Origin: an uncultured virus (IMG/VR IMGVR_UViG_3300029288_000087)
Taxonomy: Duplodnaviria > Heunggongvirae > Uroviricota > Caudoviricetes
Virus record (IMG/VR): IMGVR_UViG_3300029288_000087
Length of the DNA stretch: 64,000 nucleotides
Reading direction: 5' to 3' (one strand)
The notes beneath the pieces were generated by a model. It had not been told where the DNA came from. It made no database searches and saw only the letters and a list, made by a program, of their open reading frames with translations. Positions 3,007-53,944 of the stretch are shown here, one piece after another; position 1 is the stretch's first letter; every line of letters starts with the position of its first letter. The translations under genes and the position numbers were made by a program.

Positions 3007-3014
3007 GAGGAAAC

Positions 3015-3704
3015 ATGTTGGGGAACGTCTTGATCTGTGATGTGGAAACGACTGGGTTGGACCCGGACTCGGACTTTGTGATCGAAATCGCCGCGGTCGG
3101 CTACAACGTGCCAAACCATAGTGTCGTCGAAGCATTCTCGTGCGTCGTCAGCTCTACCGACGACAACAAGGCCGAGGCGATCAACCATATTCCATCGGCC
3201 ATCTTGTCGCTCTCCAGTAAGTGGCCAACGGATGTCTGGAACATCGCCAACGCCATGAGCATAGGGTGCGACGCTGTCCTCGCCCACAACGCGTCGTTCG
3301 ATTACCAGTGGGTGGAGAAGACCGTAGCGGAGAGGCTGTACAATCTCCCCTGGATCGACACCTGCGACGGGATCACGTGGCCCAAGCAGGCCAAGCCCGG
3401 CTCCTCGTTGATCTCGCTCGCCCTGGAGCATGGTCTCGCCGTCGTCGATCCTCATCGCGCGCTCTCGGACTGTCTGCTGCTAGCCCGTCTGCTCACGCGT
3501 TGTGCCGAACTCGGCCACGACGTTCAGGCAATGCTCGCCAGGGGGCTGCGCCCACAGACGCTCGTGCAGGCGCTGGTGTCCTTCGAGGAGAGAGACAAGG
3601 CGAAGGAACTTGGCTTTCACTGGGACAGCGCCAACAAGCGATGGATCCGCCGCATGCCCCTTGAGGATTGCGCCGCCCTGCCATTCTCGGTACGACCAGT
3701 CTGA
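3015..3704 (+). CDS. DEDDh 3'-5' exonuclease (DnaQ-like)
   Basis: DVETTG, AHNASFD and HRALSD motifs. Confidence 0.9.
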   Translation: MLGNVLICDVETTGLDPDSDFVIEIAAVGYNVPNHSVVEAFSCVVSSTDDNKAEAINHIPSAILSLSSKWPTDVWNIANAMSIGCDAVLAHNASFDYQWVEKTVAERLYNLPWIDTCDGITWPKQAKPGSSLISLALEHGLAVVDPHRALSDCLLLARLLTRCAELGHDVQAMLARGLRPQTLVQALVSFEERDKAKELGFHWDSANKRWIRRMPLEDCAALPFSVRPV

Positions 3705-3714
3705 GGAGACTACC

Positions 3715-4371
3715 ATGCCGAAGGTTGATACGATCGTCACCAAGTTCACCCAGGAAGAGCTTGCCACTGCGCTGTGCCGCGCCCATCTCGCCTACTTCGG
3801 CGAGACGCCCGCGGATCCGTGCCTTGCCTGCGCATGGGCGCACAACGTGCTGGAGTGCGGCAGGGACGCCCACGGCGTGATCTCCAGCTGCCGGTGTTTC
3901 AACCTGGGCAACATCACCATCGCTGCGAAGGACTACGAGTCCGTCCCCTACTGGCAGATCGTCTGCTCCGAGCAGCAGCGCAACGGCGATGGGTCGCTCA
4001 ACGGCAAGTGGGTCAGCACCGTGATGCGCTTTGCAGCGTTCGACTCGCTGCTGGACGGGGCGATCTTCTACTGGGCGCTTCTTGCGCGTCGGCCTCGCAG
4101 CCTTGCGGCAATGCGGACCGGCGACGGCTACAAGTTCGGCCTAGCCCTTGGGGCCGATCACTACATGACCGCCAACCCTGAGCCATACGCTAGGTCGCTC
4201 GCGTCTCTTGCGCGAGAAGGCGCAGCACTCGTACAGGGCTTGGCAATCCAGGACACCTCTGGTGACGCAGATCGCGCCGGGCAGCTGATGAACATGATCG
4301 CGCTGACTCTGGACGAGTCGGTGCGCGACTTCTTGAATCCACCAAAGGACGAAGGGGAATCTAATACATGA
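3715..4371 (+). CDS. Putative lysozyme-like peptidoglycan hydrolase (GH73/glucosaminidase-like)
   Basis: LECG...FNLGNI...FAAFDSLLDGA...YMTA pattern; RBS GAGGAG before ATG 3715. Confidence 0.5.
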   Translation: MPKVDTIVTKFTQEELATALCRAHLAYFGETPADPCLACAWAHNVLECGRDAHGVISSCRCFNLGNITIAAKDYESVPYWQIVCSEQQRNGDGSLNGKWVSTVMRFAAFDSLLDGAIFYWALLARRPRSLAAMRTGDGYKFGLALGADHYMTANPEPYARSLASLAREGAALVQGLAIQDTSGDADRAGQLMNMIALTLDESVRDFLNPPKDEGESNT

Positions 4372-5243
4372 CCAACGGAAACGTAGAACAGAAGGACTCC
4401 GCCATCACGCTCCTGCGCAAGGACGTGGAATCCCAGATCGAGAGGGCGCGGGCGCTCATCGAGCCTGCGCTGCCGAAGTCGTGTGACTTCAAGCAGCTCG
4501 TTGCCAAGACGCTGGTGGCCATTCAGAGCACGCCCAGCCTCGCGGACACCAACGCCGTCTCGATCTTCTGGTGCTTCGTGCACGCCGCTGAGCTGGGGCT
4601 GTCGCTCGACGTGTCGAGTCAGGAGGCCCACATCATCCCGTTCGAGGACAAGAAGCACGGACGCGGCAAGCGGGCCAAACTCATCACCGGCTACCGCGGC
4701 CTCGTCAAGCTCGCCTTGCAGCATCCGAAGGTGCTCAGTGTCCACGCCAGGGCGGTCTGCGAGAAGGACAAGTTCGAGTACGACGAGGGGTCCACTCCGT
4801 TCGTTGTGCACAAGAGGTTCCTGGGAAGCGATCATCCCGGTGAGGTGATCGCCGCGTATGCGGTCATCAGCCTCCAGAACGGCGGTAGGATCGTCGGTGT
4901 CATGTCCAGGTTCGACGTGGACAAGGTGCGCGCCATGTCCCGCGGGTCGAGCGACCCCGACTCGCCGTGGACGAAGTGGTACGACCAGATGGCGGCGAAG
5001 ACCGTCCTTCGCAACACCCTGAAGCAGAGCCCCAGGTCAGTCGAGGCGGAGAAGGCTCTCGCGCTCGAAGACGCGGCTGAGCAGGGCGTGATCGAGCCCG
5101 GCGAGGAGATCGTCGTGGCCAAGCGCGGCCAGCCAGCCCAGGGACGGGTGAGCAGGATGCGAGGCCGGGTTGCGCAGCAGGCAGAGGCGGAACCGACGAA
5201 CAACGGTCGCGACGAAGAGCCGCCGCCGGATGATCTGCCGTGA
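4368..5243 (+). CDS. recT: RecT-family ssDNA annealing recombinase
   Basis: AELGL, LITGYRGLVKLA, AAYAV and SPWTKWYDQMAAKTVLR motifs; co-located with YqaJ. Confidence 0.9.
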   Translation: MTNGNVEQKDSAITLLRKDVESQIERARALIEPALPKSCDFKQLVAKTLVAIQSTPSLADTNAVSIFWCFVHAAELGLSLDVSSQEAHIIPFEDKKHGRGKRAKLITGYRGLVKLALQHPKVLSVHARAVCEKDKFEYDEGSTPFVVHKRFLGSDHPGEVIAAYAVISLQNGGRIVGVMSRFDVDKVRAMSRGSSDPDSPWTKWYDQMAAKTVLRNTLKQSPRSVEAEKALALEDAAEQGVIEPGEEIVVAKRGQPAQGRVSRMRGRVAQQAEAEPTNNGRDEEPPPDDLP

Positions 5244-5822: not shown

Positions 5823-6347
5823 TCAGAAGCCCATGCGGAAGGGCGAGTTCGGATCACTCTCGTGGCGGATCTCGTCCACATCGCCATCGCGATTCATCCC
5901 CTTGTAAAGCCGGTCTGGGAAGTTCACGACGAGCCCTGGAACCGCGCCCACGTTGCGGTACCCGTGCACGACCCCCGGGGGAACGATCAGCATGCACGGG
6001 TTGGAATCGCCCATCCACAGCTTCATCGACTTGCCGTACGTGGGCGAGCCCTTCCGGTTGTCCCAGAGCATGATCAAGAAGTCTGACGGCCCTGTGAAGC
6101 AGAACATGTCCGTCTGCTCCTTATGCTCATGCGGCCCGCGGTCAACGCCGGGGCCGGTCATGGACAAGTAGCACATGGCAGGAACGGGGATGTTGTCGGA
6201 CGCGAACTTCAGGTTCGCCCACTTCGCGCACCGCTTGATCTCGTCGTGCCTAAGAAGCTCGCACAGCCAGCCCCTATCGTCCGTGTGCTTGCTCAGGATC
6301 GCAAAGTATATACCCTCCAACCAGTTGCCTTCTTTTTTGAGTTCCAC
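5823..6347 (-). CDS. rmlC: dTDP-4-dehydrorhamnose 3,5-epimerase
   Basis: DDRGWL, RGPHEH, DNRKGSPTYG and PPGVVHGY motifs; GTG start after GGAGG. Confidence 0.9.
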   Translation of the reverse strand: MELKKEGNWLEGIYFAILSKHTDDRGWLCELLRHDEIKRCAKWANLKFASDNIPVPAMCYLSMTGPGVDRGPHEHKEQTDMFCFTGPSDFLIMLWDNRKGSPTYGKSMKLWMGDSNPCMLIVPPGVVHGYRNVGAVPGLVVNFPDRLYKGMNRDGDVDEIRHESDPNSPFRMGF

Positions 6348-6349
6348 AA

Positions 6350-7429
6350 CTACCTCCTGCCGCACGTGATGACCGTGTCGTCCCCAACGGTGAGAGACAG
6401 CCCGCTGTGCGCCAGCGTGTCCTTGATGACTACGCGCCTTCCGACCAGAGCATCCTCCAGGCGGGGCACGCCGACAATCCGGCTGTCCTCCATGATGACC
6501 GAGTGCGACACGGTAGACTCGACGACGCACGCTCTGTCGCCAATCGACGTGAATGGGTCAATCCTTGAGTTGCAGATGCTCGCGCCCAAACCGATGATGA
6601 CCGGGCCTCGGATCGTGGAGTTCTGGATAATGGCCCCGTTGCCAACGCGTACGCGGCCCCACAGCTTGCTCTTCTCATCTATGTGCGCCCCTGCGCTACC
6701 AGACTCCAGGAGGCTGTCCAGAACCGTGTCGTTCGCGAGCAGGAGGTCGTCCTTCTTGCCGGTGTCGAGCCACCACGATGTGACCATCGAGTAGCCGACC
6801 TTGCCGCCCATCTCGATCAGCTCCTCGATCGCATCGGTGATCTCCAGCTCGCCTCGCTTCGACGGCTTGATTCGATCGATCGCCTCGAAGATGCGCGCGC
6901 GGAACAAGTAGATCCCCACGAGAGCGAGATTCGAGATGCGCTCCTTCGGCTTCTCGATCAGCTGGACGATCCCGCCATCCTTGTTGAGGACAGCAACGCC
7001 ATACGATGCCGGGTTCGAGACCTCCTTGAGCATGACCGCCGCGTCCACGCCCTTCTGCCATACAAACTCCTGGACCGGAGCAACGATCGACGTGCCGATC
7101 AGGTTGTCTCCAAGGTACATGCAGAAGTCGCTGTCGCCCAGAAACGGCTTCGCCACCAGAACCGCGTGGGCAAGCCCAGCAGGCTGCTCCTGGCGGATGA
7201 ATGTGAACTTCACGCCCCACTTAGTTCCGTCCCCGAGCGCTTGCTGAATCTCAAGCCCGGTCTCGGGCGAGATGATCACCCCGATGTCCCTGACGCTCGC
7301 GCGCGCGAGGCTCTCGATGACGTAGAACAGGATCGGCTTGTTCGCCACGGGCACGAGCTGCTTCGCTCCGCTGTACGTGATCGGACGAAGTCGGGTTCCA
7401 CAACCCCCCGCGAGGACGAGTCCCTTCAC
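6350..7429 (-). CDS. rmlA: Glucose-1-phosphate thymidylyltransferase (long form)
   Basis: KGLVLAGGCGTRLRPIT, KQLVPVANKPI, LGDN and RGELEITD motifs; C-terminal hexapeptide repeats. Confidence 0.95.
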   Translation of the reverse strand: MKGLVLAGGCGTRLRPITYSGAKQLVPVANKPILFYVIESLARASVRDIGVIISPETGLEIQQALGDGTKWGVKFTFIRQEQPAGLAHAVLVAKPFLGDSDFCMYLGDNLIGTSIVAPVQEFVWQKGVDAAVMLKEVSNPASYGVAVLNKDGGIVQLIEKPKERISNLALVGIYLFRARIFEAIDRIKPSKRGELEITDAIEELIEMGGKVGYSMVTSWWLDTGKKDDLLLANDTVLDSLLESGSAGAHIDEKSKLWGRVRVGNGAIIQNSTIRGPVIIGLGASICNSRIDPFTSIGDRACVVESTVSHSVIMEDSRIVGVPRLEDALVGRRVVIKDTLAHSGLSLTVGDDTVITCGRR

Positions 7430-8490
7430 TTCGGCCCCACGCCGAGCCCCAAGCGCTCGCGGTTGTACTTTGCCTTGGCCTTCTCGCACCAGTCCAGGTG
7501 CTCCAGGTACCAGCGGACGGTGTGGCGTATGTCTTTCTCGAAGTCGCGCTTCGGCAACCACCCCGTATGCCTCCACAGCTTCGATGCTTCGATTGCGTAG
7601 CGAAAGTCGTGCCCCGGGCGATCCGTCACGAACCCGATCAGCCTGCGGTATCCGTTCTGGTTCTCTCGTAGCCAGCTGAGCGCGTCGCAGATCGAATGCA
7701 CGACCTGTAGCGTGTTCCGCTCTTGGCTACTACCAATGTTGTAGACCTCCCCAGGCGTCCCATCGGTCGCCACACGTATGAGCGCTTCGCAGTGGTCGTC
7801 CACATGGATCCAGTCACGCACGTTCATGCCGTTGCCGTAGACCGGGATGGGCTTGCCCTCGATGGCGTTCAAGATCGTGAGCGGGATGAGCTTCTCGGGG
7901 AACTGGTAGGGGCCGTAGTTGTTCGAGCAGTGCGTGATGATCGTCGGCATCCCGTAGGTCTTGTTGTACGCGCGCACGAGGTGGTCCGACGCGGCCTTCG
8001 TCGCTGCGTAGGGTGAGTTGGGAGCATACGGGCTGTTCTCGGTGAACTTCGCGTCATCCATCCCAAGCGACCCGTAGACTTCATCGGTGGAGACGTGGAT
8101 GAATCGGCACGAGCCTGAGCAGCCGCTGCCGCTGCTCCAGTAGTCCTTCACGGCGTTGAGCATCCTCGCTGTGCCCGCAACGTTGGTTGACACGAACGGC
8201 ATGACCCCGTCGATGGATCGGTCCACGTGGGTTTCAGCGGCGAGGTGGAACACGACCGTGGGCTTGAACCACGCAATCTCGTTGTAGAGATTGCCGGTCC
8301 TGATGTCCAGATCCGCAAACTCGAACCGAGGATCTTCAGCCACGTCGGCGAGGTTCTCCATGCTGCCCGCGTAGGTAAGCGCGTCAATGATGTACACGCT
8401 GACCTCGGGCTCCTTGAGCAGCATGCGCACAAGGTTCGATCCGATGAAGCCTGCGCCACCCGTTATGACGTACCTCTTTTCGCCGCTCAC
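7426..8490 (-). CDS. rmlB: dTDP-glucose 4,6-dehydratase
   Basis: TGGAGFIGS, AAETHVDRSI, STDEVYG, YAATK and NNYGPYQFPEKLIP motifs. Confidence 0.97.
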   Translation of the reverse strand: MSGEKRYVITGGAGFIGSNLVRMLLKEPEVSVYIIDALTYAGSMENLADVAEDPRFEFADLDIRTGNLYNEIAWFKPTVVFHLAAETHVDRSIDGVMPFVSTNVAGTARMLNAVKDYWSSGSGCSGSCRFIHVSTDEVYGSLGMDDAKFTENSPYAPNSPYAATKAASDHLVRAYNKTYGMPTIITHCSNNYGPYQFPEKLIPLTILNAIEGKPIPVYGNGMNVRDWIHVDDHCEALIRVATDGTPGEVYNIGSSQERNTLQVVHSICDALSWLRENQNGYRRLIGFVTDRPGHDFRYAIEASKLWRHTGWLPKRDFEKDIRHTVRWYLEHLDWCEKAKAKYNRERLGLGVGPK

Positions 8491-8861
8491 TTTCCCGGCT
8501 CCCGCTCCCTGGCCTCCGCCGAGATGTTGAAGCGCTGCTCGTACTCGCGACACTTCTTCAGCAGCCGCGTGTTCTCGTTCTTGTACCAGCTGATCTTGTC
8601 CTGCATTGCCCAGTACCGTGAGGCGTACCAGCCCATCTTCTTGCTCAGCGGCGCGAGCACCTTGTACAGCACGTCCACGTCTCCCTTGGAGAGCTTGCCA
8701 AGGAGCACACCCGCAAGCAGAGCCTCCTTGGAGGCCTGCACATCGGCCCCATCCTGCTGGTCAGTGTAGCCAGCTGGCGGGGCCTCTGGGTACTCGTCCG
8801 GGAGACGCGCGGCCCGGTCAAGGTCGGCGGTCTCCACCACAGCTTTCTTCTTTTCAGTCAT
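8487..8861 (-). CDS. Hypothetical protein
   Basis: MTEKKKAVV...; RBS GGAGG; stop overlaps rmlB start. Confidence 0.7.
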   Translation of the reverse strand: MTEKKKAVVETADLDRAARLPDEYPEAPPAGYTDQQDGADVQASKEALLAGVLLGKLSKGDVDVLYKVLAPLSKKMGWYASRYWAMQDKISWYKNENTRLLKKCREYEQRFNISAEAREREPGK

Positions 8862-11923: not shown

Positions 11924-12862
11924 TCACCGCTGGTGCGTCTTGTCCGTCAGCGAGTCGTAGTGCTCACCTTTGTGGCCCTCGTGCAGCGTGCAATAGTGCC
12001 ACCGGCTTCCCGCCTGCCACGCGAACTGGCAGCGGTTCGTGGGGTCCAGGAAGGAGTAGCCGTGGCGAGCGTTCGGGATCAGACGCTGCGTCGCATCGTC
12101 ACACAGCGAGTCCATGTGCTGTCCACTGTGCCCCTTCTCCCTGGTGCACATAAACGTTCGCTTGCCGCTCTTCCACGTGTACTCGCACCGATTTGGGGGC
12201 TTCCAGCCCTGCGCCTTGGGATCCGTCAAGCGACTGTAGGCGTTGGGTGCCGCCCGGCCTGACAGAAACGACTTCACTTCATCCGGCGTGCCCTCGAAGA
12301 TGCGGTGCCACGCGGGTTCGTCCGGTGCCGAAAGCTCGACGACCAGGATCGGAGCCCCACGCTTCTCGGACCAGTAGGCGCACTTCTTCAGGATGCGGAC
12401 CTTGGCACCGGGGAAGCCCGCGACGTTGACGCCGCGGGAGTCGGTCGCGAACTTCTCCGCTTCCTGCGCGACCGTGGCAGCCTTCAAGGCTTCGATGCGA
12501 GGCACAGCGGCTTGAACTACGCGAGCGCTGACGTGAGAGCGCTGGGGAGTCTCGTTGTGACAAGCGTTCTTCTTCGCCCACGCGCTTGGTACTTCCTGTG
12601 CGAAAACCGTGTAGGACTTGCCAAGACGCTCAGACAGCCTGTCTCGCACAGCGGACTCGCAGGCTTTCTCGCTTGGGTCAGAGCACTCGACCACAACCTG
12701 TGTGATCTCTCTCTCGCCTTTCGTCGAACCCATCGGCGCGGTTGTCCGCAGATACGGATCTGCGCTCTTGATGTCTTCTCTCTTGAAACAATCAAGAATC
12801 ATCTGCAAGTTGTGCTTATAACACCTGTTGAAAGGCTGCTCGATAACAACATAACAGATCAT
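11924..12862 (-). CDS. Protein with two C-terminal C-x11-C-x4-GHxGxH putative Zn-finger repeats
   Basis: NRCEYTW...CTREKGHSGQH and NRCQFAW...CTLHEGHKGEH. Confidence 0.7.
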   Translation of the reverse strand: MICYVVIEQPFNRCYKHNLQMILDCFKREDIKSADPYLRTTAPMGSTKGEREITQVVVECSDPSEKACESAVRDRLSERLGKSYTVFAQEVPSAWAKKNACHNETPQRSHVSARVVQAAVPRIEALKAATVAQEAEKFATDSRGVNVAGFPGAKVRILKKCAYWSEKRGAPILVVELSAPDEPAWHRIFEGTPDEVKSFLSGRAAPNAYSRLTDPKAQGWKPPNRCEYTWKSGKRTFMCTREKGHSGQHMDSLCDDATQRLIPNARHGYSFLDPTNRCQFAWQAGSRWHYCTLHEGHKGEHYDSLTDKTHQR

Positions 12863-12870
12863 GACAACTC

Positions 12871-13614
12871 CTATATCGTCTCGACTTCAACCACCGGAGG
12901 GTTCCCCTCCCGATGCCCAACGATTCTCATTCTCCTGCCGAACAAAACCGTCTCCCTGTCATGCGCGGTAGGGGCGGCGAGGAGCCATTCCGAATGCTCT
13001 GTCGTCACAAACACATCCGTCGTCGGGCACGTCAGCTCTGCCACAACCGGGTTGCCGCGCACGACCGTCATCACGTGCTTGCCATACGCGTACTCTGTCG
13101 CCGCCTCAAACGATGGCGTCCACGACTCAAGAGGCCTCGTCTCGACAATCGTTCCGACCTTCGATGACAAGAGCTTGCCACCGTGCGCGCTGTGAAGACC
13201 TCGGTACACGGTGATGGTCGGCTTCCCGATTTTAGCTACCGTCTCGTCCGAAACCGCCTTCATTGCCAAAGCGATCTTCCTCGGATCGTAGTCCTCTTTC
13301 GCACGCTCGCCCGTGAACATGTCTCGCGTCGCGATCTGCATCTTGCCGGTGTCGTAGTGGTAGATCACGGTCCTGCTAAGCGCTCCTCGCGGGTCCAGCG
13401 TGAACCGGAACGTGCCGTCTTCGTCGTCGTACGGAGCCCCCGGTGTATCTGCCCCGGTGGCAAGCCCGCTCGCTTTCGCAATGCTCATCATCACGAGCGT
13501 CGGCTCGCAAACCGCAGACGCCCTCCACTGGCTGACCATGAACTCAAGGATCTGGCGCGTCACCGGGTCCGCAGACCAGTTGCGTCGCGCGCTTCGACTC
13601 CTTCGGCCAGCCAT
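12871..13614 (-). CDS. Putative ADP-ribosyltransferase-fold protein
   Basis: TVYRG...ESWT...DRETV (R-S-E order); leaderless start, TAGAAT 7 nt upstream. Confidence 0.55.
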   Translation of the reverse strand: MAGRRSRSARRNWSADPVTRQILEFMVSQWRASAVCEPTLVMMSIAKASGLATGADTPGAPYDDEDGTFRFTLDPRGALSRTVIYHYDTGKMQIATRDMFTGERAKEDYDPRKIALAMKAVSDETVAKIGKPTITVYRGLHSAHGGKLLSSKVGTIVETRPLESWTPSFEAATEYAYGKHVMTVVRGNPVVAELTCPTTDVFVTTEHSEWLLAAPTAHDRETVLFGRRMRIVGHREGNPPVVEVETI

Positions 13615-18527: not shown

Positions 18528-19346
18528 CTACGCCTTCGCCGGTTCTTCCGGAGACGCCTCCGCCACAAGCTCCTCGTCCTTCTCGAAAGGGTTCTTCCCC
18601 TCGAACATCCGCCTGAGCTGCTTGTGTCGGAGAAAGACAAGCTGCGAAAAATCCTTCGAGTCGTCTTCCAGCTCGATACGGAAGCACGGGCACGGGACAT
18701 CCTTGCGCGCCCTTGCGGCCACCGTCTCTCCCCAGTGTTCGCTCAGCTGCGAAGGCTCGATGGTTTCGATCCACTCCATCTTGTAGAGCTTCGTTCCGAT
18801 GACCACGCTCACCCACGCGCCTATCTGCTGCGGAAAATGGACATAACCGTGCAGCGGCACGATGCTCATGGGAGCTTGGTACGGTATCCCATCGTCGTCC
18901 TTCGGTTCCACGATCATGAGAGCGCGCCTAACGGCACCCTCTTCGTCGAGCGGCCCATCGAGAAGCAGCCGAATTTCATGATCGCAGAAGTTCACAAACA
19001 CGACGGCTTTGACGGTATCGGGTAGCCACTGGAGAAGCGCGTGTCGCTCATCAACCGGGTTGTCCCTGTGCGACTCCTTCGCCGGTTCTTCAGCAGCCGC
19101 TCCGTACCTTCGCTCCTCTGTCTCACAAGGGCACGGGAACACCACGGCGTCGAACGCCTCGCTTGCCTGAAGCCATGCCGACAGCCTGTGGCGGGTCCTT
19201 CTGTCGAGCTTGCCGATGGTGCGCATGATGTCGAACTCGTCCAGAATGATCGTGGCCCGACGCTCCTCCGCAGACCCTGGCATGTCCTCTGTGGGGATCG
19301 AAATGGTTTCTTCGGCAGGCCCATCGAAAATACCGTTGCCCATCAC
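18528..19346 (-). CDS. Hypothetical protein
   Basis: 272-aa ORF in operon; RBS AGGAG. Confidence 0.75.
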   Translation of the reverse strand: MMGNGIFDGPAEETISIPTEDMPGSAEERRATIILDEFDIMRTIGKLDRRTRHRLSAWLQASEAFDAVVFPCPCETEERRYGAAAEEPAKESHRDNPVDERHALLQWLPDTVKAVVFVNFCDHEIRLLLDGPLDEEGAVRRALMIVEPKDDDGIPYQAPMSIVPLHGYVHFPQQIGAWVSVVIGTKLYKMEWIETIEPSQLSEHWGETVAARARKDVPCPCFRIELEDDSKDFSQLVFLRHKQLRRMFEGKNPFEKDEELVAEASPEEPAKA

Positions 19347-21758
19347 CTACTCCTTAGCCGGCTCTTCCGGAGCCGCCTCCGCCTCGGGCTCCTTCTGCTG
19401 CTTGGCGATGAATTCCGCCTGCACCTTCATGAGCACGCGCCACACGTCGTCCAGGTAGCGCTTGCCCTTGCCGGTTGCCAGGACAGTCCCGCTGGTCGCC
19501 GGGTCACTGCGCAGGCTCGCGACAAACCTGTCCTTCTCGATGACCTGGGGAATCATCACGACGGTGCTCTCGCCGTTCTGCTCGATGAATGTCTTGACCA
19601 ACACCTCGGGCGGCACCCTGTGAGAGCACGCCTCCTTGATCGTATTCACGAGCCCAGCAACCTGCTCGCGGTTGATCCCTGGGATCCAGTCGAACGAGGA
19701 CCACGGCTCCTTCTTCGGCGCGACGTTCTGCTTGGCCGCGGGCTGCGACACGGGGGTGTCTGCCGCAACGGCCTGAGCCGCCGTCACAGGCCCCTGCGGA
19801 GCCTGTTCGATGACCACTGGCGGCGGGTACTGGGGCTGCTGCACGGGCTGCTGCGGGGCCTGCCGCATCGGCTGCTGCGTGATGGACGGCTGCGTCATCG
19901 GGTTGAACGGGACCGGAGGCATGCCGGGACTGCGCGACGACATGCGGTTGTGCTCGTCTGCGCTCACCTGCGGCCCCGGCAGGTTGTCGAACGAAGACTG
20001 CACGGCTGGCCCCTCGCTGTCGGCGAACTGCACCCGGTGCACACGCCTGGGCGGAGGCAGCATCTGACGAGCCTGCTGCACGGGAGGCACCTGCTGCACC
20101 TGCACCTGCTGCACAGGAGGACTACCCTTCTGGAGCAAGTCCTTGATCTGTGGGATCAGCGTGTCGGCCTGGGAGATGGCCATGAGGATGGCCTTCTGAT
20201 ACCAAGGCGCGTTCGCCGCAGCCGCCGCCATCGCGGCCTCTTCTGGAGTCGGCCCGCCTTCCTTCTCGTCTGTCGCGATCCCGAGCGCAACGGCGGTCTC
20301 CCGAAGCTCCTGCACCTTGTTCAGAAGCGGCTTGTTCTGCTCCGCGAGGTGGGCGTTGACGAGCTGCGCCTTGCTCTGGAGATCCGCCACCGTCGCGGCA
20401 AGCTGGTTCTGAAGCGCGCGCACCTCGAATCCGTGCGCCGCATCGAGCGTCGTCTTGGTGTTCGTCTCGACCGCCTCGCGCATACGCGTTTCGCGATCGT
20501 GACTGCGCTGGATGTCGTCGAGCCGCTGTTGCCCGATGCGCTGCGCTTCTTCCATCGACCGCTTGTGCTCTTCGCGAAGGTAGCGCTCACGCCGATCGAA
20601 GTCGTCCTTCAGCTCGCGCTCCCGGCGTTCGATGATCGTATCCTTGTCGCGCATGCGATCTTCAAGTGAAGCAACACGGGTCTGCATCTCGGACCGAACG
20701 CGCTCGACCTCGCGCTCCTTCTCTCTCTTCTCGATCTCGATCAGCCGCTCGAACTCCCGCTGCCTCATCTCCATCTCGCGTGCGTGCTGCTCCTGCACCG
20801 CGCGCATGTCATCGGAGTTCGCCCCGCCGCGCACCGACGAGTTGATCAGCGCAACGGCCTTGACCATCTCGACCATGTCGTTGGGCTTCTGGCCGATCTC
20901 GGCGATCTGCCTGCGCATCTCCATCATCTCGGCTTGCTTGGCTTCGAGCTGACGTTCCAGAAGCGCAACTTGCTGCTGCGCCATCTCCTTGGTCGAGTCG
21001 ATCGCGCGCTCCTGCTGACGACCCATCACGCTGAAGACCGTATCGGGCAAGCCCTGCTGAGCCTGCTGCGGCCTGTTTGCCATGCGCTCTGCGAAGCTCA
21101 GAAATGGCGCGTAGTCTTGCGGCTGCTGTTGCTGCGGCATCTGCATGCGCATGCCCGCGCCTCCGTAGGGGCTGCCACCACCCGGGAACGTGAACACCAT
21201 AGGTCCCTCACTACTCTCGCTGTCTGCGATCGGAAGGCTCTGCATGTTGGGATCGACAGGTACGGAGAACTCCGCAACGGCAACATCCACCAGCGCGGGA
21301 GGCCCGCCCATGTTCGAGCTGTCACCTTGCTCCATCACGCCGTAGACCCGGTACTTGTACCCGCCGTAGAGCCGCAAGAACTCCTGCGTGCCGATCATCA
21401 TGTTGTGCATGCCGACGATACCGGAAACGCGCTGGCGCTGCCCCGTGCCGGGATCGAGATGCCACTCGGGCTCGATGCGCTGTACGCGCAGCTTGCCGAC
21501 CTTCCGGAGATCCGGGTACGCGCTGTACATCGTCTCAAGAGATGGGAACTTCGGCACGTTCATGCCGCCGCGGCGACGGCTGATCTCGGCACGCCGCTCG
21601 ACATCCTCCATCGGCGCGCGCGACTCGGGAAGCGATCCCATGTCGATCCCGCCCATCGGATCGTACGAAGTAGCAGCAGGACCGCCTGATCGACGGCGCG
21701 CGGGGAACGGGAGTTCGGGCAGCGGCTGTTCTTCAGCCGTCGTGGGTTCGTCGGCCAT
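19347..21758 (-). CDS. Large (803 aa) coiled-coil, Gln/Pro-rich protein
   Basis: Long E/R-rich coiled coil; PQ-rich linkers; RBS GAGGT. Confidence 0.85.
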   Translation of the reverse strand: MADEPTTAEEQPLPELPFPARRRSGGPAATSYDPMGGIDMGSLPESRAPMEDVERRAEISRRRGGMNVPKFPSLETMYSAYPDLRKVGKLRVQRIEPEWHLDPGTGQRQRVSGIVGMHNMMIGTQEFLRLYGGYKYRVYGVMEQGDSSNMGGPPALVDVAVAEFSVPVDPNMQSLPIADSESSEGPMVFTFPGGGSPYGGAGMRMQMPQQQQPQDYAPFLSFAERMANRPQQAQQGLPDTVFSVMGRQQERAIDSTKEMAQQQVALLERQLEAKQAEMMEMRRQIAEIGQKPNDMVEMVKAVALINSSVRGGANSDDMRAVQEQHAREMEMRQREFERLIEIEKREKEREVERVRSEMQTRVASLEDRMRDKDTIIERRERELKDDFDRRERYLREEHKRSMEEAQRIGQQRLDDIQRSHDRETRMREAVETNTKTTLDAAHGFEVRALQNQLAATVADLQSKAQLVNAHLAEQNKPLLNKVQELRETAVALGIATDEKEGGPTPEEAAMAAAAANAPWYQKAILMAISQADTLIPQIKDLLQKGSPPVQQVQVQQVPPVQQARQMLPPPRRVHRVQFADSEGPAVQSSFDNLPGPQVSADEHNRMSSRSPGMPPVPFNPMTQPSITQQPMRQAPQQPVQQPQYPPPVVIEQAPQGPVTAAQAVAADTPVSQPAAKQNVAPKKEPWSSFDWIPGINREQVAGLVNTIKEACSHRVPPEVLVKTFIEQNGESTVVMIPQVIEKDRFVASLRSDPATSGTVLATGKGKRYLDDVWRVLMKVQAEFIAKQQKEPEAEAAPEEPAKE

Positions 21759-21772
21759 GAGCTACCTCACCT

Positions 21773-21883
21773 GTCGCAGACATCGGCCTGTACGCCGTTG
21801 GTTTTGATAGCTCATCGAGCTTGGCGAATCCGTCATCGAAGCCGTGTTGCAGATATCGGCCTGCGCGCCATTGGTTTCGATCG
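21773..21883 (-). CRISPR. CRISPR-like mini-array 1 (repeat, 35-nt spacer, repeat)
   Basis: Repeats 21773-21810 and 21846-21883 (73-bp period). Spacer 21811-21845 matches 21960-21994 inverted at 30/35. Confidence 0.7.
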
Positions 21884-21910
21884 CTACGGGATCGTCGGCC
21901 ATGATCCACC

Positions 21911-22363
21911 TCAGTTTGGTTCAGGCTCGTCGGGCTCTTCTTCGATGACGAGATCCTTGACACCCTCGATGACAGATTCACCAAGCTCGATGAGATCGGC
22001 GAGCTGCGCAGCGATCGGAAGCCCCTGCTTCTTGGACTCCGCATGCTGCGCCTTGAAAATCTCAACGGCCTTCTCGACGAAGGCGAGGATCTTGTCGGCG
22101 TCTTCCTGTTCGAGCTGGCTCGCGCCTTCGGCCTCTTCGAGATCCGCGATCGCGTCTTCGTGGCGCACAACGGCGGCGGCGCACACTCGCACGTCTTCGG
22201 CCAGCATCTTGAGGTTCGGCAGAAGATCATCCTGGATGAAGTCGTGCAGATCGCGAGACCCCTCGTCGGTCTTCACGTCGTTGTCGATCTTCTTCGCGAG
22301 CTTGTCGAGATTCTCCAGCACCATGTCGATCTTCAGCACATCGCCTTCGGTCTCGTCACTCAT
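21911..22363 (-). CDS. Acidic helical hypothetical protein; its 3' end holds the protospacer of array 1
   Basis: 150-aa ORF with RBS GAGGT. Confidence 0.8.
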   Translation of the reverse strand: MSDETEGDVLKIDMVLENLDKLAKKIDNDVKTDEGSRDLHDFIQDDLLPNLKMLAEDVRVCAAAVVRHEDAIADLEEAEGASQLEQEDADKILAFVEKAVEIFKAQHAESKKQGLPIAAQLADLIELGESVIEGVKDLVIEEEPDEPEPN

Positions 22364-23003
22364 CGGTCACCTCTTGGAACTCATCCTTGTCGAGAACCTT
22401 CTTGCCCGCTTCCACATCTTCCTTCGTCTTGAACATGCGGTAGCCCTTGATCTTGCGCGGAGCCTCGCGATCGCCAGAGCCCGCGCCCTCGACGATGACG
22501 CGCGCCTTGCCGATCTCGATCTTCTCCGCGTCGATCGCGTCCAGCACGTTCGTCGCCGCGGGATCAGGCGGATCGCGGAACTCGCAATCGAAGATGGCCG
22601 AGTCCTTCAGACACATCGCTGCGCCATTGATACCGCGAAGCGCTTCGACGGTGCAGAACCGCTCGATGAGCGCAAGGTCGGGAATGTCCGGGCTGATCAC
22701 GCGCTGCCTCTTGTAGAAGCGGCACTTACCGAGCCGGGTCAACCGGCCCTTCTTTGGATCTGGCTCTTGTTCCAGACACGAGAACGTTTGCGGGCACAGC
22801 GGAGGAGGAAGTGCCTGAGAGAAGGTCCACGGCGGATCCTTCTCGATCGGCATACCGTCCGGTCCGTCTCGGTACTCGGGCTGCGCAGGCCGGAATTGCT
22901 CGAAGATGCTGCCGCCGGGAGTCGGGCTTCCGGTTTCAGTCTCCTCTTCGTCGGCTTGTTCTGCTAGTGTCTCGTCCTGTTCGATCGTGGGGTCATCAGC
23001 CAT
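22356..23003 (-). CDS. Hypothetical Cys-containing protein
   Basis: MADDPT...; leaderless after the promoter at 23011-23039. Confidence 0.8.
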   Translation of the reverse strand: MADDPTIEQDETLAEQADEEETETGSPTPGGSIFEQFRPAQPEYRDGPDGMPIEKDPPWTFSQALPPPLCPQTFSCLEQEPDPKKGRLTRLGKCRFYKRQRVISPDIPDLALIERFCTVEALRGINGAAMCLKDSAIFDCEFRDPPDPAATNVLDAIDAEKIEIGKARVIVEGAGSGDREAPRKIKGYRMFKTKEDVEAGKKVLDKDEFQEVTDE

Positions 23004-23010
23004 GACGCAC

Positions 23011-23039
23011 GTTGTCGCAGGAAACGCACAGCGTGTCAA
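23011..23039 (-). promoter_or_regulatory. Sigma70-type promoter overlapped by the protospacer of array 2
   Basis: TTGACA-17-GACAAC-7-ATG. Confidence 0.6.
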
Positions 23040-23045
23040 CGACGA

Positions 23046-23372
23046 TTAGGGGGTGCCTGTTTTCCCGGAGGTTGCGGATATCGGCCCGCACGCCGTTGGT
23101 TGATCGCCATGATCCTCGTTGATACGTCGCACGATACCTGCGAGTTGCGGATATCGGCCCGCACGCCGTTGGTTCTTGAGGCGCAGTATCCTCTTCGGGC
23201 GATAGCCGCAGCACAGATCGCACACGAGGAACGAGGGTTCCTTCACGGTCGAGCCCTTCAGATAGGGACCAGCGTAGAGCGTGGGGACGACGCGCCCGCA
23301 CCACATGCACGGGCGATCGGGCACAACGTCGAAAGGTTCCCACTGCACGGGGATTTTGGGCCAGTGGCTCAT
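23046..23372 (-). CDS. Small Zn-finger-like protein whose 3' end runs through mini-array 2
   Basis: CMWC...CDLC; promoter TTGCCA-17-TACCAT at 23411-23383. Confidence 0.55.
   Translation of the reverse strand: MSHWPKIPVQWEPFDVVPDRPCMWCGRVVPTLYAGPYLKGSTVKEPSFLVCDLCCGYRPKRILRLKNQRRAGRYPQLAGIVRRINEDHGDQPTACGPISATSGKTGTP
23071..23181 (-). CRISPR. CRISPR-like mini-array 2 (repeat, 37-nt spacer, repeat)
   Basis: Identical 31-bp cores at 23071 and 23144 (73-bp period). Spacer 23107-23143 matches 23015-23051 inverted at 27/37. Confidence 0.7.
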
Positions 23373-23552
23373 GATGGGCCAGATGGTATCGCAGGGTCGT
23401 ATAGTTGGCAAGGGGATGTGATGACAAATAGAGGACGCGCGGCACCAAGTGAGGGGGGGAGGACTCGGTCTGCCGCGCGCCAGATTTCGGCCCAAGGTCG
23501 CGATGCGTCTTCGTGGGCCTGAACGGTAGGGTATGCGCAACGGCCCCGCCCG

Positions 23553-23759
23553 TCAACTGTCGTCCACTTCCCACGTCCGAACAATGGTGCTGCCGCAGGG
23601 GCAGTCCCGGTACTCCATCGCTTCGCCCCAGTCGAATACCGTGTAGCCGACCAAGTGGAGCTTCTGCCACTGGGCTTCGGTGTAGAGCTTGCCGCACGGG
23701 CACCGCTTGGGCATCGGGTCCAGGAGCTTGCCGAGGCGGATTGCGGGTGTCGTTGCCAT
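23553..23759 (-). CDS. Small CPCG...CPCG Zn-ribbon protein
   Basis: Two CPCG motifs. Confidence 0.65.
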   Translation of the reverse strand: MATTPAIRLGKLLDPMPKRCPCGKLYTEAQWQKLHLVGYTVFDWGEAMEYRDCPCGSTIVRTWEVDDS

Positions 23760-23765
23760 CTTCGA

Positions 23766-24338
23766 TCAGCCAAAGCGTCCGAGCGAGAACCCGGCTGTCC
23801 CCGCACGACGCCCCTCCGCGATGTCGGCAAGCGAGCAGAACCCCAGAAATCTCGTATCTACGCGGTGATCCGGGACTCGTTTGACAACCGCTCCGCGCTC
23901 CTGCGCGACCTCCGGGCTTGTCACGTCCACGTCGCCGTTCTGCGCGCCAATGCACGCTGCTCGCCCTTCGGGCGGGTACCACTTCTCGACCAGCATGATG
24001 TGGACGGCCTTCTGTGCGCTTCCGAAGAGGGCAACGTCCCCTGGGGTGGGCTCCACAACCTGCGGAAGAGCATGCCAGATCGCGTTCGAGTTCATCTCCA
24101 TCTCGAACCCGGCAGCGCGCGCGCAGTCGATGATGAGCCCCGAGCAGTCCAGGCCCCACGAGCTTACGCCCGCGTGCCCTCCGCCCCACTGGTAGAGCGT
24201 CCCAGCCTTCACATGCTCATCGGCGCGAGCAAGCATTGCCTTGCGCCACGGGGCCAGATTGGAGGCTCCCACGCGGCTCGCGTACACGATCGCTACGATG
24301 GCTGCGATGCCGAGAGCCCACGGAAGCGCGGGGTTCAT
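23766..24338 (-). CDS. NlpC/P60 peptidoglycan endopeptidase with N-terminal TM
   Basis: YQWGG...GLDCSGL...PGDVALFG...HIML. Confidence 0.88.
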   Translation of the reverse strand: MNPALPWALGIAAIVAIVYASRVGASNLAPWRKAMLARADEHVKAGTLYQWGGGHAGVSSWGLDCSGLIIDCARAAGFEMEMNSNAIWHALPQVVEPTPGDVALFGSAQKAVHIMLVEKWYPPEGRAACIGAQNGDVDVTSPEVAQERGAVVKRVPDHRVDTRFLGFCSLADIAEGRRAGTAGFSLGRFG

Positions 24339-24625
24339 CCTTGTCTTCCGCCTAGATACAAGTTCATGTCGCCGTGCTCACCGTGCAGCCGGTACGGCAT
24401 CTTGCCCTCCGCGATGAGCTTCATCCTCCAGATCGCCAACCACAGCAGCACGCCGACGAAGCCGACGACGACTACGCCCACAATGGCCTTGGTCGCCGTG
24501 GAGGTCTCCTTCGCGCAACGGGGCTGGCCGTTCAGGTAGTACAAGGACTGCCCGGGTGGGCAGCTGGCCTGGGCGACCGTAGGCGGGTCCGCGCTGAGAG
24601 AGTGGGGGCGGGTAACCTGGATCAT
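24335..24625 (-). CDS. Small membrane protein
   Basis: CPPG...C module plus TM; leaderless TAGGAT. Confidence 0.7.
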   Translation of the reverse strand: MIQVTRPHSLSADPPTVAQASCPPGQSLYYLNGQPRCAKETSTATKAIVGVVVVGFVGVLLWLAIWRMKLIAEGKMPYRLHGEHGDMNLYLGGRQG

Positions 24626-24648
24626 GCTGCCATCCTACCTCAACCGTC

Positions 24649-25086
24649 TCAAGCCACCAACTTGAGCCGCGCCCTGAACAGCCGGTTCTTGGTGGTCGAG
24701 TCGTTGGCCGCATCGGTCCCAAGCACGGCATCGACGATGGCGCTCCGATCCACAACGGGCATGGCGTCAACCTGCTTCAACACGCTAAGCAGTCTCGCCC
24801 GCGCCTCGATGAGGCTGTCGATGGTGCAGCTGGTCTCGAACTCGGGGACCACAACGGCGGCATGTCGGCAGCGGTCCCGCTTCACTTCGAGGCACTTCAT
24901 GATGACGATGTGGTGCAGCCACGTGCTGACCTTGCACCTGCCATCGAAGGGAGCCGTGAGCGCCTTGATGAACGCCCACTGCACAATGTCCTCCGCATCC
25001 TCGCGGCTGGCCATGATGCGCTGCGCGGCAGCGACGAGCCGCGCCCGGTGCGCCCTGCATTCCCGATCCAACGCCTGCCTGTCCAT
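24649..25086 (-). CDS. ECF-type RNA polymerase sigma factor
   Basis: EDAEDIVQWAFIKA...FDGRCKVSTWLHHI (region 2); TKNRLFRARLKL (region 4 end). Confidence 0.8.
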   Translation of the reverse strand: MDRQALDRECRAHRARLVAAAQRIMASREDAEDIVQWAFIKALTAPFDGRCKVSTWLHHIVIMKCLEVKRDRCRHAAVVVPEFETSCTIDSLIEARARLLSVLKQVDAMPVVDRSAIVDAVLGTDAANDSTTKNRLFRARLKLVA

Positions 25087-25631
25087 CGGACAACCGATGG
25101 TAAGCACGCGCCGCGCCGCTTGCAAGAGTCGCCGCGCGCATGGATACATGATCGAGCGTTCCGACGTTCCTACGATCCATATCCTCTCATACGAGGTCGC
25201 GTCAGCGTTGTGGTAAATGCAAGCTCAACCCAAGCGCCTTCCGATCTCGCAGGCGAGGATCATGCTTTAGCGTTCTGGGTGAAGCAGAGGCTTCGATCCA
25301 ACCATCCCGCTGAAGCGGCGTCCTCCCCTTCCGATGCCATCCTCTCGGAACGAGGATACACATATCACCAACTGATCCAGATCCCGATTCGAGGAAACAC
25401 CTCGGTCTCATCCAAACGTTCGTACCCTACGGGCACTCACTGGGAACACGAAGCGTTATGGCGAATCGGGAAATACGCCACGACGTAAGGTAGATCCCTA
25501 TTAGGCCAGAAAATGGATGGGGTCCACAAGTGAAAAGTGAACGTAGCGTGCCACGATTTCAAAATAGGTAGCATAATGTGAGCGCTATACACACAAAGCG
25601 CGCGACGGATTGGTTGATAGCTGGAAGCGTT

Positions 25632-26363
25632 CTAGTCGGGCTCGATCGCGATGGGATCGACGGGGCCTCGGCGCAAGGCTTCGGTCAATAGAACGGGCGC
25701 GAATTTATCGATCGCCACGTCCATCCCAATACCGATGCAGGCGTATCCAGGGAGCCATACGTCCGACTGGTTGAACCCGAACTTGATTTGCAACTGCTTG
25801 GACGTGAGCGACTTGCAGTGGCTGATGAAGTTCAGAACGTTCGTTCCTATCGACGGAGATATGACGAGTTCGACCATGTTTCTGGTCACCGCTCCGGAAT
25901 TGATGAGAACGCTGTCTGGTCTTTGTTGTCGGACGATGCTTCTGATGAGTTCCTTGTGCTCCATCTCGAAGACTGTAGGAGGCTTTGCTCGCCAGCAAAT
26001 CCACAACGGGTTGTAGTAGAACGACGCTCTTTCGGAGTTGACGAGGTTCGACATGTCCGATGGATCCGGGCATCGTCGATAGAAAATCGTCCAGTCGTAC
26101 GGCTCCTCTGGCGTAAATCCACTTCGTTTCAAAAGAGCAATGATCTCTGGCCCGGGAGCAAACCACTCTCCTCTGATTCTGTAGTGCGCAAAAACACGAT
26201 GGAATTTGTGCTCCGTTTCAACGCCACCGGCAATGACTCCGACGACATTCAACTCCCATGGACACCCGGTCTGTATCTCGTTCTGACGGCTTTTCGCCGT
26301 TCCTGTTGTCGTCCCGATTTTGATTGGTCCACCCCCGGGAATTTGCATGAAGTAAACGCTCAT
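25632..26363 (-). CDS. GIY-YIG (T5orf172/MUG113-like) nuclease-domain protein
   Basis: VYFMQ...IKIG...RQNEIQTGCP...EHKFH...RIRGEWF; lower GC than neighbours. Confidence 0.8.
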   Translation of the reverse strand: MSVYFMQIPGGGPIKIGTTTGTAKSRQNEIQTGCPWELNVVGVIAGGVETEHKFHRVFAHYRIRGEWFAPGPEIIALLKRSGFTPEEPYDWTIFYRRCPDPSDMSNLVNSERASFYYNPLWICWRAKPPTVFEMEHKELIRSIVRQQRPDSVLINSGAVTRNMVELVISPSIGTNVLNFISHCKSLTSKQLQIKFGFNQSDVWLPGYACIGIGMDVAIDKFAPVLLTEALRRGPVDPIAIEPD

Positions 26364-53811: not shown

Positions 53812-53841
53812 TTGACACCGTTGCGGATCTTGCCGTAGACT
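53812..53841 (+). promoter_or_regulatory. Promoter upstream of the core/capsid operon
   Basis: TTGACA-18-TAGACT. Confidence 0.6.
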
Positions 53842-53913
53842 GCCTCTCACGTAGCAAGAGCCTCGTTGGCCCAGGGTGACGAGTTCAGCTCCCGCGAACT
53901 GAGCGGAGTTGTA

Positions 53914-53944
53914 TTCCAACGGCGTGCAGGCCGATATCTGCAAT
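53914..53944 (+). repeat. Solo fifth copy of the mini-array repeat
   Basis: CCAACGGCGTGCAGGCCGATATCTGCAA, 26/28 identical to the array-2 core. Confidence 0.85.

Follow-up and report, generated by a model that had tools for sequence, protein, structure and literature searches.

Probable CRISPR mini-arrays of a TnpB-like type V repeat family, with spacers resembling neighbouring DNA, on a putative mobile element

Introduction

What is an imperfect, inverted copy of the end of a gene doing between two repeats just downstream of that gene? The question is raised by a 64,000-nucleotide (nt) stretch of DNA from an uncultured virus record (IMG/VR IMGVR_UViG_3300029288_000087), hereafter called the window, which is the first 64 kb of the 134-kb contig C3. 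At positions 21773 to 21883 of the window, two 38-nt repeats enclose 35 nt that correspond, with a few mostly synonymous differences, to the last codons of the adjacent gene for a 150-amino acid (aa) protein. The arrangement looks like a minimal CRISPR array, and several further questions follow. To which family do the repeats belong? Where is the effector that would use them? Why does the spacer differ from the gene at such positions, and why does it lie beside the very site that it resembles? An earlier reading of the letters of this DNA, here called the original prediction, had proposed that the spacer was taken from a functional orthologue of the gene and that mismatches next to the protospacer-adjacent motif (PAM) protect the carrier, with an RNA hairpin as an alternative. 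The reading that we favour, and hold to be slightly on the probable side when taken as a whole, makes this unit an orphan mini-CRISPR array of a mobile element: its spacer would represent an orthologous allele, its effector would be supplied in trans, the carrier's own copy would be spared by seed mismatches, and its function would be directed against relatives. The mini-arrays are called orphan because no effector gene adjoins them.

Mini-array 1 and the adjacent gene

Mini-array 1 is read on the minus strand. Its first repeat, R2 (21846..21883, −; 38 nt), whose 3′ hairpin GCAG-GCCGATAT-CTGC is followed by AAC, precedes the spacer S1 (21811..21845, −; 35 nt, read from 21845 to 21811 and antisense to the 150-aa gene), and a distal repeat, R1 (21773..21810, −; 38 nt), with a weakened stem (TACAG/CTGCG), closes the unit. 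The plus strand of S1 (21811-21845) is CTCATCGAGCTTGGCGAATCCGTCATCGAAGCCGT. The 150-aa gene (21911..22363, −) ends with a segment, 21960-21994, whose reverse complement is CTCATCGAGCTTGGTGAATCTGTCATCGAGGGTGT. These inverted copies are identical at 30 of 35 positions; their homology sets in with the very first base after the repeat and spans 35 nt. With the TTG at 21957-21959, the gene segment makes up an imperfect protospacer (21957..21994, +) in the last codons of the gene. The original prediction had stated that S1 resembles the adjacent gene with five differences, and a scan of the bin bears this out: in an ungapped comparison with both strands of all 205 contigs of the 3.57-Mb bin, the runner-up reaches 25/35, and when the comparison is confined to the bin's 86,394 TTG-flanked sites, the one in the neighbouring gene comes out on top (30/35), the second best having 24. 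A repeat search of the window returns the core of the same pair as an inverted repeat of 29 nt (I1, 93%).

Where do the five differences lie? With a codon starting at 21994 in the frame of ORF (open reading frame) 21911..22363(−), they fall at codon positions 3, 3, 3, 2 and 3, and their only effect on the peptide is a change from ...IEGV to ...IEAV. Counting from the spacer end that adjoins the upstream repeat puts them at guide positions 3, 4, 6, 15 and 21. The earlier statements that four of the five are at third codon positions, that three are at guide positions 3, 4 and 6, and that four would be compatible with G-U pairing in minus-strand RNA all agree with this reading. By hand calculation, p is ~0.045 for at least four of five differences at third positions and ~0.03 for at least three of five among guide positions 1-6 of 35; both values are modest, and three of the five differences fall in two adjacent codons.

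The 150-aa protein is acidic and belongs to no family; three homologues are known as proteins. Downstream of the mini-array, the ATG of an 803-aa ORF (19347..21758, −), glutamine-rich and also of no family, lies 14 nt beyond R1; this ORF gives no sign of being a nuclease. The mini-array is contained in a 144-nt insert bracketed by two 26-nt direct repeats (D11 in the repeat search, 88%). Copy a (21744..21769, −) comprises the ribosome-binding site and ATGGCCGACGAnCCC at the true start of the 803-aa ORF, and copy b (21888..21913, −), upstream of R2, duplicates the ribosome-binding site and first five codons of this gene. A 46-codon ORF (21762-21902, −) opens at copy b and traverses R2, S1 and R1; it is probably not a gene and probably a by-product of the insertion.

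The repeat family and its TnpB-like effectors

To which family do the repeats belong? A covariance model was built from 10 repeat copies: five from the window, two from the 51-kb viral contig G001, and one each from the loci L310, L391 and L398. The five window copies score 48.6-52.9 bits (R1 48.6, R2 50.3). The model gives 44.8-46.3 bits on the array of L310, one copy of which was in the training set, and 20.8-33.0 and 24.6-25.9 bits on the arrays of L309 and L311, neither of which was in it. Over 24 matches (E <= 0.005), 97.4% of 115 stem cells pair in a 5-bp stem, although the alignment was fitted to the model and is biased towards structure. Two repeats of a second mini-array in the window, R3 and R4, both carry a compensatory A-U to G-C change; one pair is changed on both sides (2 cells; 4 of 500 shuffles equal this), and such covariation within the subfamily counts as a single event. 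At the sequence level, the window repeats share a 13-mer, GGCGTGCAGGCCG, and the 3′ 7-mer CTGCAAC with L310, and the repeat of L309 reads ..AAAACCAACGGAG.GCAGTCCGATACCTGCAAC; L309, L310 and L311 belong to the same subfamily as the window repeats.

The sole ordinary CRISPR array of the bin is on C12, a phage contig that resembles a myovirus in its genes for terminase, portal, major head, sheath, tape measure and baseplate proteins. It begins at the last bases of a gene for a 447-aa protein, which matches the RNA-guided TnpB family with 109 bits (cut-off 100), type V models staying below their cut-off. The array has 14 repeats of 36 nt with spacers mostly of 35-39 nt and a period of 71-74 where it is regular; four distal gaps, of 19, 24, 26 and 96 nt, are irregular. 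Effector and array occupy C12:6496-8833 (locus L269 of G000), and lone extra repeats are found at about C12:1523 and 1924, and a further one at about 26822, amid the structural genes and in the opposite orientation. The repeats of C12 and of the window are alike in architecture (ACCAAC, 4 nt, a 5-bp stem, loop, stem, AC, then the spacer), which is all that they share: the C12 repeat is not matched by the covariance model at E <= 10 and belongs to another subfamily.

The C12 effector has 14 metagenomic homologues (29-49% identity). When IMG/VR was scanned with an alignment of these homologues, the best 80 of 458 relatives were kept and the nine best loci were inspected; six of these nine carry arrays by a k-mer test, and a seventh, L309, by the covariance model. 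The effectors of L309, L310 and L311, whose repeats are those of the window's subfamily, are 29-36% identical to the 447-aa protein. The array starts at the stop codon of the effector gene in L305 (= C12) and L310, and about 200 nt after the gene in L309. Members of this effector clade are about 440-460 aa long, retain the RuvC D, E and D residues and four zinc-finger cysteines, and are closest to solved structures of TnpB, TranC and Cas12f. Family spacers are 34-39 nt long with periods of 70-74 in the regular stretches (C12, L310, L311), L306 and the distal part of C12 being irregular. The window arrays, with a period of 73 and spacers of 35 and 37 nt, are inside this range.

In TnpB and Cas12 systems the repeat hairpin is followed on its 3′ side by the guide, and a flanking motif adjoins the target at its 5′ side; T-rich 5′ flanks are of the kind that these enzymes use, and TTG fits. 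Comparison of the C12 and L306-L311 spacers with the bin, G001 and the other loci gathered gave no informative match, so that a PAM cannot be derived independently from them; one spacer of L309 matches 27/40 at a distance of 2 kb, with no TTG flank. On these grounds it is well supported that the window units are true CRISPR repeats of a TnpB-like type V effector family, and the R2-S1-R1 unit is very probably a CRISPR mini-array of this repeat family. The original prediction, in which S1 was a CRISPR spacer between CRISPR repeats, is supported in this respect by the family match of the covariance model, the 35-nt homology counted from the repeat end and the TTG flank.

Locus L309, a 149-kb viral contig, also carries, besides its effector gene (3001-4305), a two-repeat mini-array (2850-2961) 40 nt upstream of the start of that gene. 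Its three-repeat array is at 4505-4681, and the ribosome-binding site and ATG of the next gene follow directly after the last repeat.

A second mini-array and a solitary repeat

Mini-array 2 consists of R4 (23144..23181, −; 52.7 bits), the first repeat, which has the stem TGCGG/CCGCA with the compensatory change, a 37-nt spacer S2 (23107..23143, −; read from 23143 to 23107) and the second repeat R3 (23071..23106, −; 52.9 bits). R3 and R4 are identical across 31 nt. The sequence of S2 is unrelated to that of S1, and both repeat pairs are spaced 73 nt. Does S2 also resemble its surroundings? Its best TTG-flanked match lies about 55 nt from mini-array 2 (23012..23051, +, with TTG at 23012-23014), between R3 and the ATG (23003) of a 215-aa ORF. 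It is imperfect (27/37, ten mismatches), perfect at guide positions 1-7 and patchy afterwards, and it ranks first of 86,387 TTG-flanked sites in the bin, the next having 23. A local alignment blind to the flank also gives 23015-23046 as the best plus-strand match of S2 on C3, starting from guide position 1; its score of 24 is no better than chance, shuffled spacers scoring 21-31 on the 134-kb contig. For each spacer, the best TTG-flanked match in 3.57 Mb is within about 150 nt of its own array and on the opposite strand.

A fifth copy, the solitary repeat R5 (53907..53944, +; 50.6 bits), is in the leader of an 825-aa ORF region; by eye, hexamers TTGACA-18 nt-TAGACT (53812-53841) are seen about 65 nt upstream of it. 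A 27-nt motif of the repeat matches five times in the window and never in 100 shuffles; all five copies are oriented like the flanking genes, and no further match was found in the 205 contigs of the bin. The idea that the repeat is a coded peptide was rejected: the copies are in different frames, and the pair spacing of 73 nt is not a multiple of 3. A diversity-generating retroelement or invertible segment was also rejected: the repeat is inverted and a mere 35 nt long, and no reverse transcriptase or invertase was seen nearby.

Relatives with and without the array

If S1 stands for an orthologous allele, do relatives carry it? The three homologues of the 150-aa protein, P0002-P0004, are 89, 70 and 69% identical to it and were seen as proteins. 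P0004 has IEAV, as S1 does, and its peptide departs from that of the spacer at two other residues. No relatives of the 150-aa and 803-aa proteins were found in IMG/VR and INPHARED, nor of the 150-aa protein in PLSDB, and Protein Atlas gave no usable match for the latter; the 803-aa protein matched one of 61 related genomes, which was its own.

Six sequencing runs contain parts of the window, and four of them (X2-X5) were aligned. All six are DNA runs, and no RNA run turned up. In run X2, a contig of 261 nt matches 21936-22122 with 11 differences and resumes at 21758, omitting 177 nt that include the array; the absent segment is bracketed in the window by the 26-nt direct repeat D11. This relative appears to join the 150-aa and 803-aa genes directly, because the 45 unaccounted letters are too few for the 144-nt array. 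In run X5, which belongs to a different study, two 151-nt contigs cover 21600-21750 and 21771-21921 with 0 differences, and runs X3 and X4, with no contig across 21768-21935, give no evidence either way. The presence of the array is polymorphic among relatives at the level of these assembled reads.

Three of the X2 differences from the window, at 21974, 21977 and 21980, lie in Ser, Glu and Gly codons and are synonymous third-position changes; two of these sites, in the Gly and Ser codons, also differ in S1, with yet another synonymous codon. The earlier proposal that S1 came from an orthologue is supported only indirectly by these comparisons: the mostly synonymous differences, the two sites that vary in X2 and the IEAV of P0004 speak for it, whereas the exact allele was not found. 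A search among orthologues for the spacer allele, which had been put forward as a check, likewise yielded the IEAV peptide in P0004 and, in X2, DNA unlike S1 at six positions.

The carrier element and its surroundings

What kind of element carries these arrays? C3 has genes for YqaJ, RecT, an AEP primase, helicases, an extracytoplasmic function (ECF)-like sigma factor, ParB, an integrase-like protein, methylases and lysis-type enzymes. The sole TnpB-family ORF on C3 (125324-126985, −; L288:5324-6985) is about 100 kb away and belongs to another clade. Considered as the effector of the arrays, it found no support: besides the difference of clade, its zinc-finger cysteines are replaced and no repeat adjoins it. 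All four of these cysteines are replaced (TSKTVSWTG..., RSAKTG...), the RuvC D, E and D residues being apparently intact, and a long S/T-rich N-terminal extension is of doubtful reality. The 5′ half of repeat R2 (GATCGAAACCAATGGCGC) resembles C3:125432-125452 (18/20 with a gap), which codes for the RuvC-III motif (DRDYNGA) of this ORF, and the 3′ end of the L310 effector gene has a weaker likeness to the L310 repeat. The likeness between R2 and the RuvC-III segment may be due to chance, or may be a trace of repeats arising from the 3′ ends of tnpB-like genes.

Solitary repeats are also found elsewhere. G001, which has almost no genes in common with C3, carries at least four, all on one strand, at L261:3997-4034 and L262:8256-8293, 11964-12001 and 12959-12996; two of the G001 repeats are nearer the L309 version, and one is just past a strong hairpin that follows a 382-aa gene. 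In the viral contigs L391, L397 and L398, solitary repeats are in intergenic leaders just upstream of genes. Among the matches listed in loose motif scans of metagenome and genome collections were chance matches, and of the 259 loci gathered up to that point, those of the window and of G001 alone have the full motif. In 93 genomes of the class, allowing up to 3 mismatches, there are 13 places in 11 genomes outside the window's five; they are scattered, have 2-3 mismatches, and no array is formed by repeat copies in those genomes. A promoter reading of the motif was abandoned after the CRISPR family had been identified: the spacing is wrong for sigma-54 (GG-N9-GC, not N10), and for an ECF-type promoter, G001 carries the motif with no homologue of the window's ECF-like sigma factor (166 aa, sigma-70 region 2; 24649-25149, −).

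A model for the action of mini-array 1

How might such an array work? We infer that it is expressed and processed, in the following way. The mini-array would be transcribed along with the surrounding minus-strand genes, and an effector acting in trans, from the host or a co-resident phage, would convert the transcript into a guide RNA consisting of the repeat hairpin and the spacer. The guide would direct cutting of related elements whose 150-aa gene has the matching allele beside TTG. The element's own copy would escape by its five mostly synonymous differences, three of which are in the PAM-proximal seed, and the outcome would be the exclusion of close relatives. The origin of S1 from an orthologue, together with self-protection, is plausible, and the sparing of the own copy would follow from the seed mismatches; for a function against relatives, we regard the case as about evenly balanced.

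Several observations weigh against this model. No capsid, portal or terminase gene was recognised among the 137 ORFs of C3 with PHROGs and Pfam, and C3, which appears to be a phage- or plasmid-like mobile element, is not established as a virus. The effectors of C12 and L310 have no match on C3, G001 has no TnpB-family gene, and the sole effector of the clade in the bin is on the phage contig C12, with a different repeat subfamily. No promoter was predicted at the arrays (a scan of 21500-23600 gave one weak site elsewhere), and the stems of both R1 and R2 are weakened. As for the relatives, the exact S1 or S2 allele is absent from the sequences recovered; X2, the sole orthologous DNA among them, has six differences from S1, no closer than the window's own copy, and its joint is seen in a single contig with a depth of 2.5. 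Simple capture of rival DNA would not lead one to expect that both spacers match sites beside their arrays, so that an additional explanation is required. Self-protection is also a poorer fit for S2 than for S1, since S2 matches its own site with an intact 7-nt seed.

Alternative explanations

Could the repeats act by themselves? They may be mimics, like the RNA anti-CRISPRs called Racrs, that would load and block the TnpB-like type V effectors of hosts or rival phages, the spacer being incidental. Racrs are described as solitary viral repeat units, type V-A examples of which inhibit Cas12a (PMC10651486), and solitary repeats of the family are found in the window (R5), at least four times in the unrelated G001 and in the leaders of L391, L397 and L398; both C3 and G001 lack the effector, and a system of this type is present on C12, a rival phage from the same bin. 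However, a decoy needs no spacer of family-typical length, and it leaves unexplained the best TTG-flanked matches of both spacers beside their arrays and the synonymous recoding; solitary copies and arrays may also differ in role. We regard decoys as an unlikely account of the mini-arrays, to be kept in mind. A further possibility is that the guides bind the element's own DNA or mRNA without cutting and tune the 215-aa, 150-aa and 803-aa genes, in the manner of the CreA/CreR-type mini-arrays of cas loci. Such regulators keep the seed, the PAM-proximal part, matched. This is what S2 does, guide positions 1-7 pairing perfectly just upstream of the start of the 215-aa ORF; S1, by contrast, is mismatched in the seed (3, 4 and 6), the opposite of known regulators. 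Both spacers match adjacent TTG-flanked sites and both guides are antisense to the local transcript, and partially complementary CRISPR RNA (crRNA)-like regulators, viral ones included, have been described (bioRxiv 10.1101/2024.10.29.618823; 10.1101/2023.03.03.530964), but an effector is missing from the element itself, the relative seen in X2 does without the array, and no promoter was predicted at either target. Self-regulation is, in our judgement, distinctly unlikely. Finally, the arrays could be decaying remnants of a CRISPR locus or a captured array fragment, with no present function, as the missing effector, the imperfect stems of R1 and R2, the two repeats left per array and the mere 27/37 of the S2 match would suggest. 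Against decay stand the identity of R3 and R4 over 31 nt together with their compensatory stem change, the gene orientation retained by all five copies, an array that is identical to the letter in a second run from another study (X5) and a repeat core kept in unrelated viral contigs, and we consider a relic very unlikely.

The original prediction had raised a cis-acting RNA stem regulating the 803-aa gene as a real alternative: RNA from the minus strand would fold back on itself, the last codons of the 150-aa gene pairing with S1 over about 35 bp, four of them G-U, and this stem would serve as a processing or stability signal for the 803-aa gene. The minus strand of 21740-22010 does fold into a long stem (−110.4 against −90.3 ± 4.9 kcal/mol for shuffles, z = −4.1), on the transcribed strand each of the four transitions would leave a G-U pair (1 in 16 by chance given transitions, by hand calculation), and at mini-array 2 a long but imperfect stem likewise forms in the fold, around R3. 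The plus strand, however, folds equally well (z = −4.2), so that the energy favours neither strand, and the second locus is ordinary overall (z = −1.48, equalled by 15 of 200 shuffles). What the stem encloses differs between the two loci, whereas the geometry of repeat-spacer and TTG-target is constant; the boundary of the arm is the end of a CRISPR repeat, the arm is wholly absent from the related X2 contig (single, of low depth), and a comparison of 19000-26000 with Rfam gave nothing at E <= 1. Moreover, a stem is a necessary by-product of any antisense spacer. The hairpin is disfavoured as the weakest of the rival readings, with a very small share of probability in our view, and the earlier suggestion gives way in face of X2 without the array, the different geometry at the second locus and the lack of strand preference in the fold.

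A more speculative explanation takes up the closeness of arrays and targets, namely that the mini-array and the recoded neighbour allele form an RNA-guided homing cassette that borrows another's nuclease. In free-standing homing endonucleases of phages, the carrier allele is resistant and the empty allele is attacked. By analogy with these endonucleases, and with the TnpB-guided retention of transposons, a TnpB-like effector in trans and the guide would cut an array-less relative in its sensitive allele, some dozens of bases away from the empty site, and recombinational repair from the array-bearing genome would copy both the array and the resistant allele into the relative. Homing would account for three features: the aim of both spacers at sites beside their own arrays, the synonymous nature of the resistant differences, and the absence of precisely this segment from a relative. 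If true, it would be a nuclease-free selfish element using someone else's nuclease. We give it a slim but real chance; a homing reading of mini-arrays was not met in a narrow literature search, and one may still be in print.

Comparison with known systems

Returning to the favoured reading, an orphan array acting against relatives, the closest precedent is the virus-borne mini-CRISPR arrays of the Saccharolobus portogloboviruses SPV1 and SPV2 (Medvedeva et al., 2019; PMC6858448). As described there, they have one or two spacers, are intergenic in an element without cas genes and are accompanied by stand-alone repeats elsewhere; their spacers relate to the carrier's kind, the carrier's own orthologous site is point-mutated and targets are near the arrays (PMC6858448). 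The window arrays share the one or two spacers without cas genes, the intergenic location, a stand-alone repeat elsewhere (R5), the nearness of the matching sites and the altered own site (five mismatches for S1, ten for S2). The portoglobovirus arrays use the archaeal host's own repeats, have leader promoters and have 100% matches in a sister virus, as confirmed with enrichment cultures (PMC6858448), whereas the window has type V repeats, its nearest arrays are on other viral contigs, no leader promoter is predicted and a perfectly matching target was not found. Identity of its repeats with a host array is also lacking, the sole array of the bin (C12) being phage-borne and of another subfamily. 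The closeness of target and array is left unexplained in the portoglobovirus study (PMC6858448).

Racrs, as presented by Camara-Wilpert et al. (2023; PMC10651486), are likewise repeat mimics on mobile elements without cas genes, and this description fits the solitary copies at 53907-53944 and in G001, L391, L397 and L398. Mini-array 1 differs in that it is a repeat-spacer-repeat unit with a meaningful spacer, and the pairs, 73 nt apart, are not solitary within about 100 bp; the search tool of the Racr paper sets such cases apart, counting a full repeat as part of a mini-array, and not as a solitary unit, when a partial one (>=90% identity) lies no more than 100 bp away (PMC10651486). CreA/CreR and the viral 'Cracr' have in common with the window a mini-array spacer that partly matches a nearby PAM-flanked site (Liu et al., bioRxiv 10.1101/2024.10.29.618823; Shmakov et al., bioRxiv 10.1101/2023.03.03.530964). 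In the account of Liu et al. (bioRxiv 10.1101/2024.10.29.618823), crRNA-like regulators modulate transcription of cas or toxin genes, and viral ones act on those of the host; in contrast, the partial targets here are the element's own neighbour genes, and the distal part of S1, not its seed, is nearly perfect.

Compact TnpB-like CRISPR systems on phages are reported from landfill and other viromes (PMC12607003; bioRxiv 10.1101/2025.01.20.633832). These phage systems (PMC12607003; the Cas12 'hacker', bioRxiv 10.1101/2025.01.20.633832; TranC), as they are characterised in those reports, are of the same kind as the effectors of the repeat family, and the window holds the RNA part alone. In homing by TnpB and omega-RNA, as set out in two preprints (bioRxiv 10.1101/2023.03.14.532601; 10.1101/2023.11.20.567912), the 'empty' allele is targeted near the insertion site and the carrier is resistant; there the nuclease is encoded by the element and the guide corresponds to the flanking DNA, whereas the window system is known from sequence alone.

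Significance and further observations

What appears to be new here is an orphan type V mini-array with spacers directed at its neighbours. Experiments on viral mini-CRISPR arrays have mainly concerned archaeal viruses that borrow type I host systems; if the favoured reading is true, the mini-array strategy would extend to the smallest type V, TnpB-like, systems. The borrowed effector might then be that of another phage and not of the host, making a three-party conflict, a possibility that arises because the effectors of the family are here on phage contigs. The closeness of target and array recurs in an unrelated system, and the window, with its two spacers and an array-less relative, offers a definite example on which homing-type explanations could be put to the test. 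In annotation work, standard CRISPR finders overlook two-repeat arrays without cas genes, and the long inverted repeat produced by such an array may pass for a regulatory hairpin.

Some other genes of C3 may be mentioned. Sugar-nucleotide genes (5823-8553, −) encode a dTDP-sugar epimerase-like protein, a nucleotidyl transferase and an NAD-dependent dehydratase/epimerase, and a UDP-glucose dehydrogenase-like gene is found with methyltransferases near C3:122-124 kb. A 1301-aa ORF (C3:68429-72334, −; L265:4429-8334) has an integrase-like region (PHROG 1) at residues 228-518.

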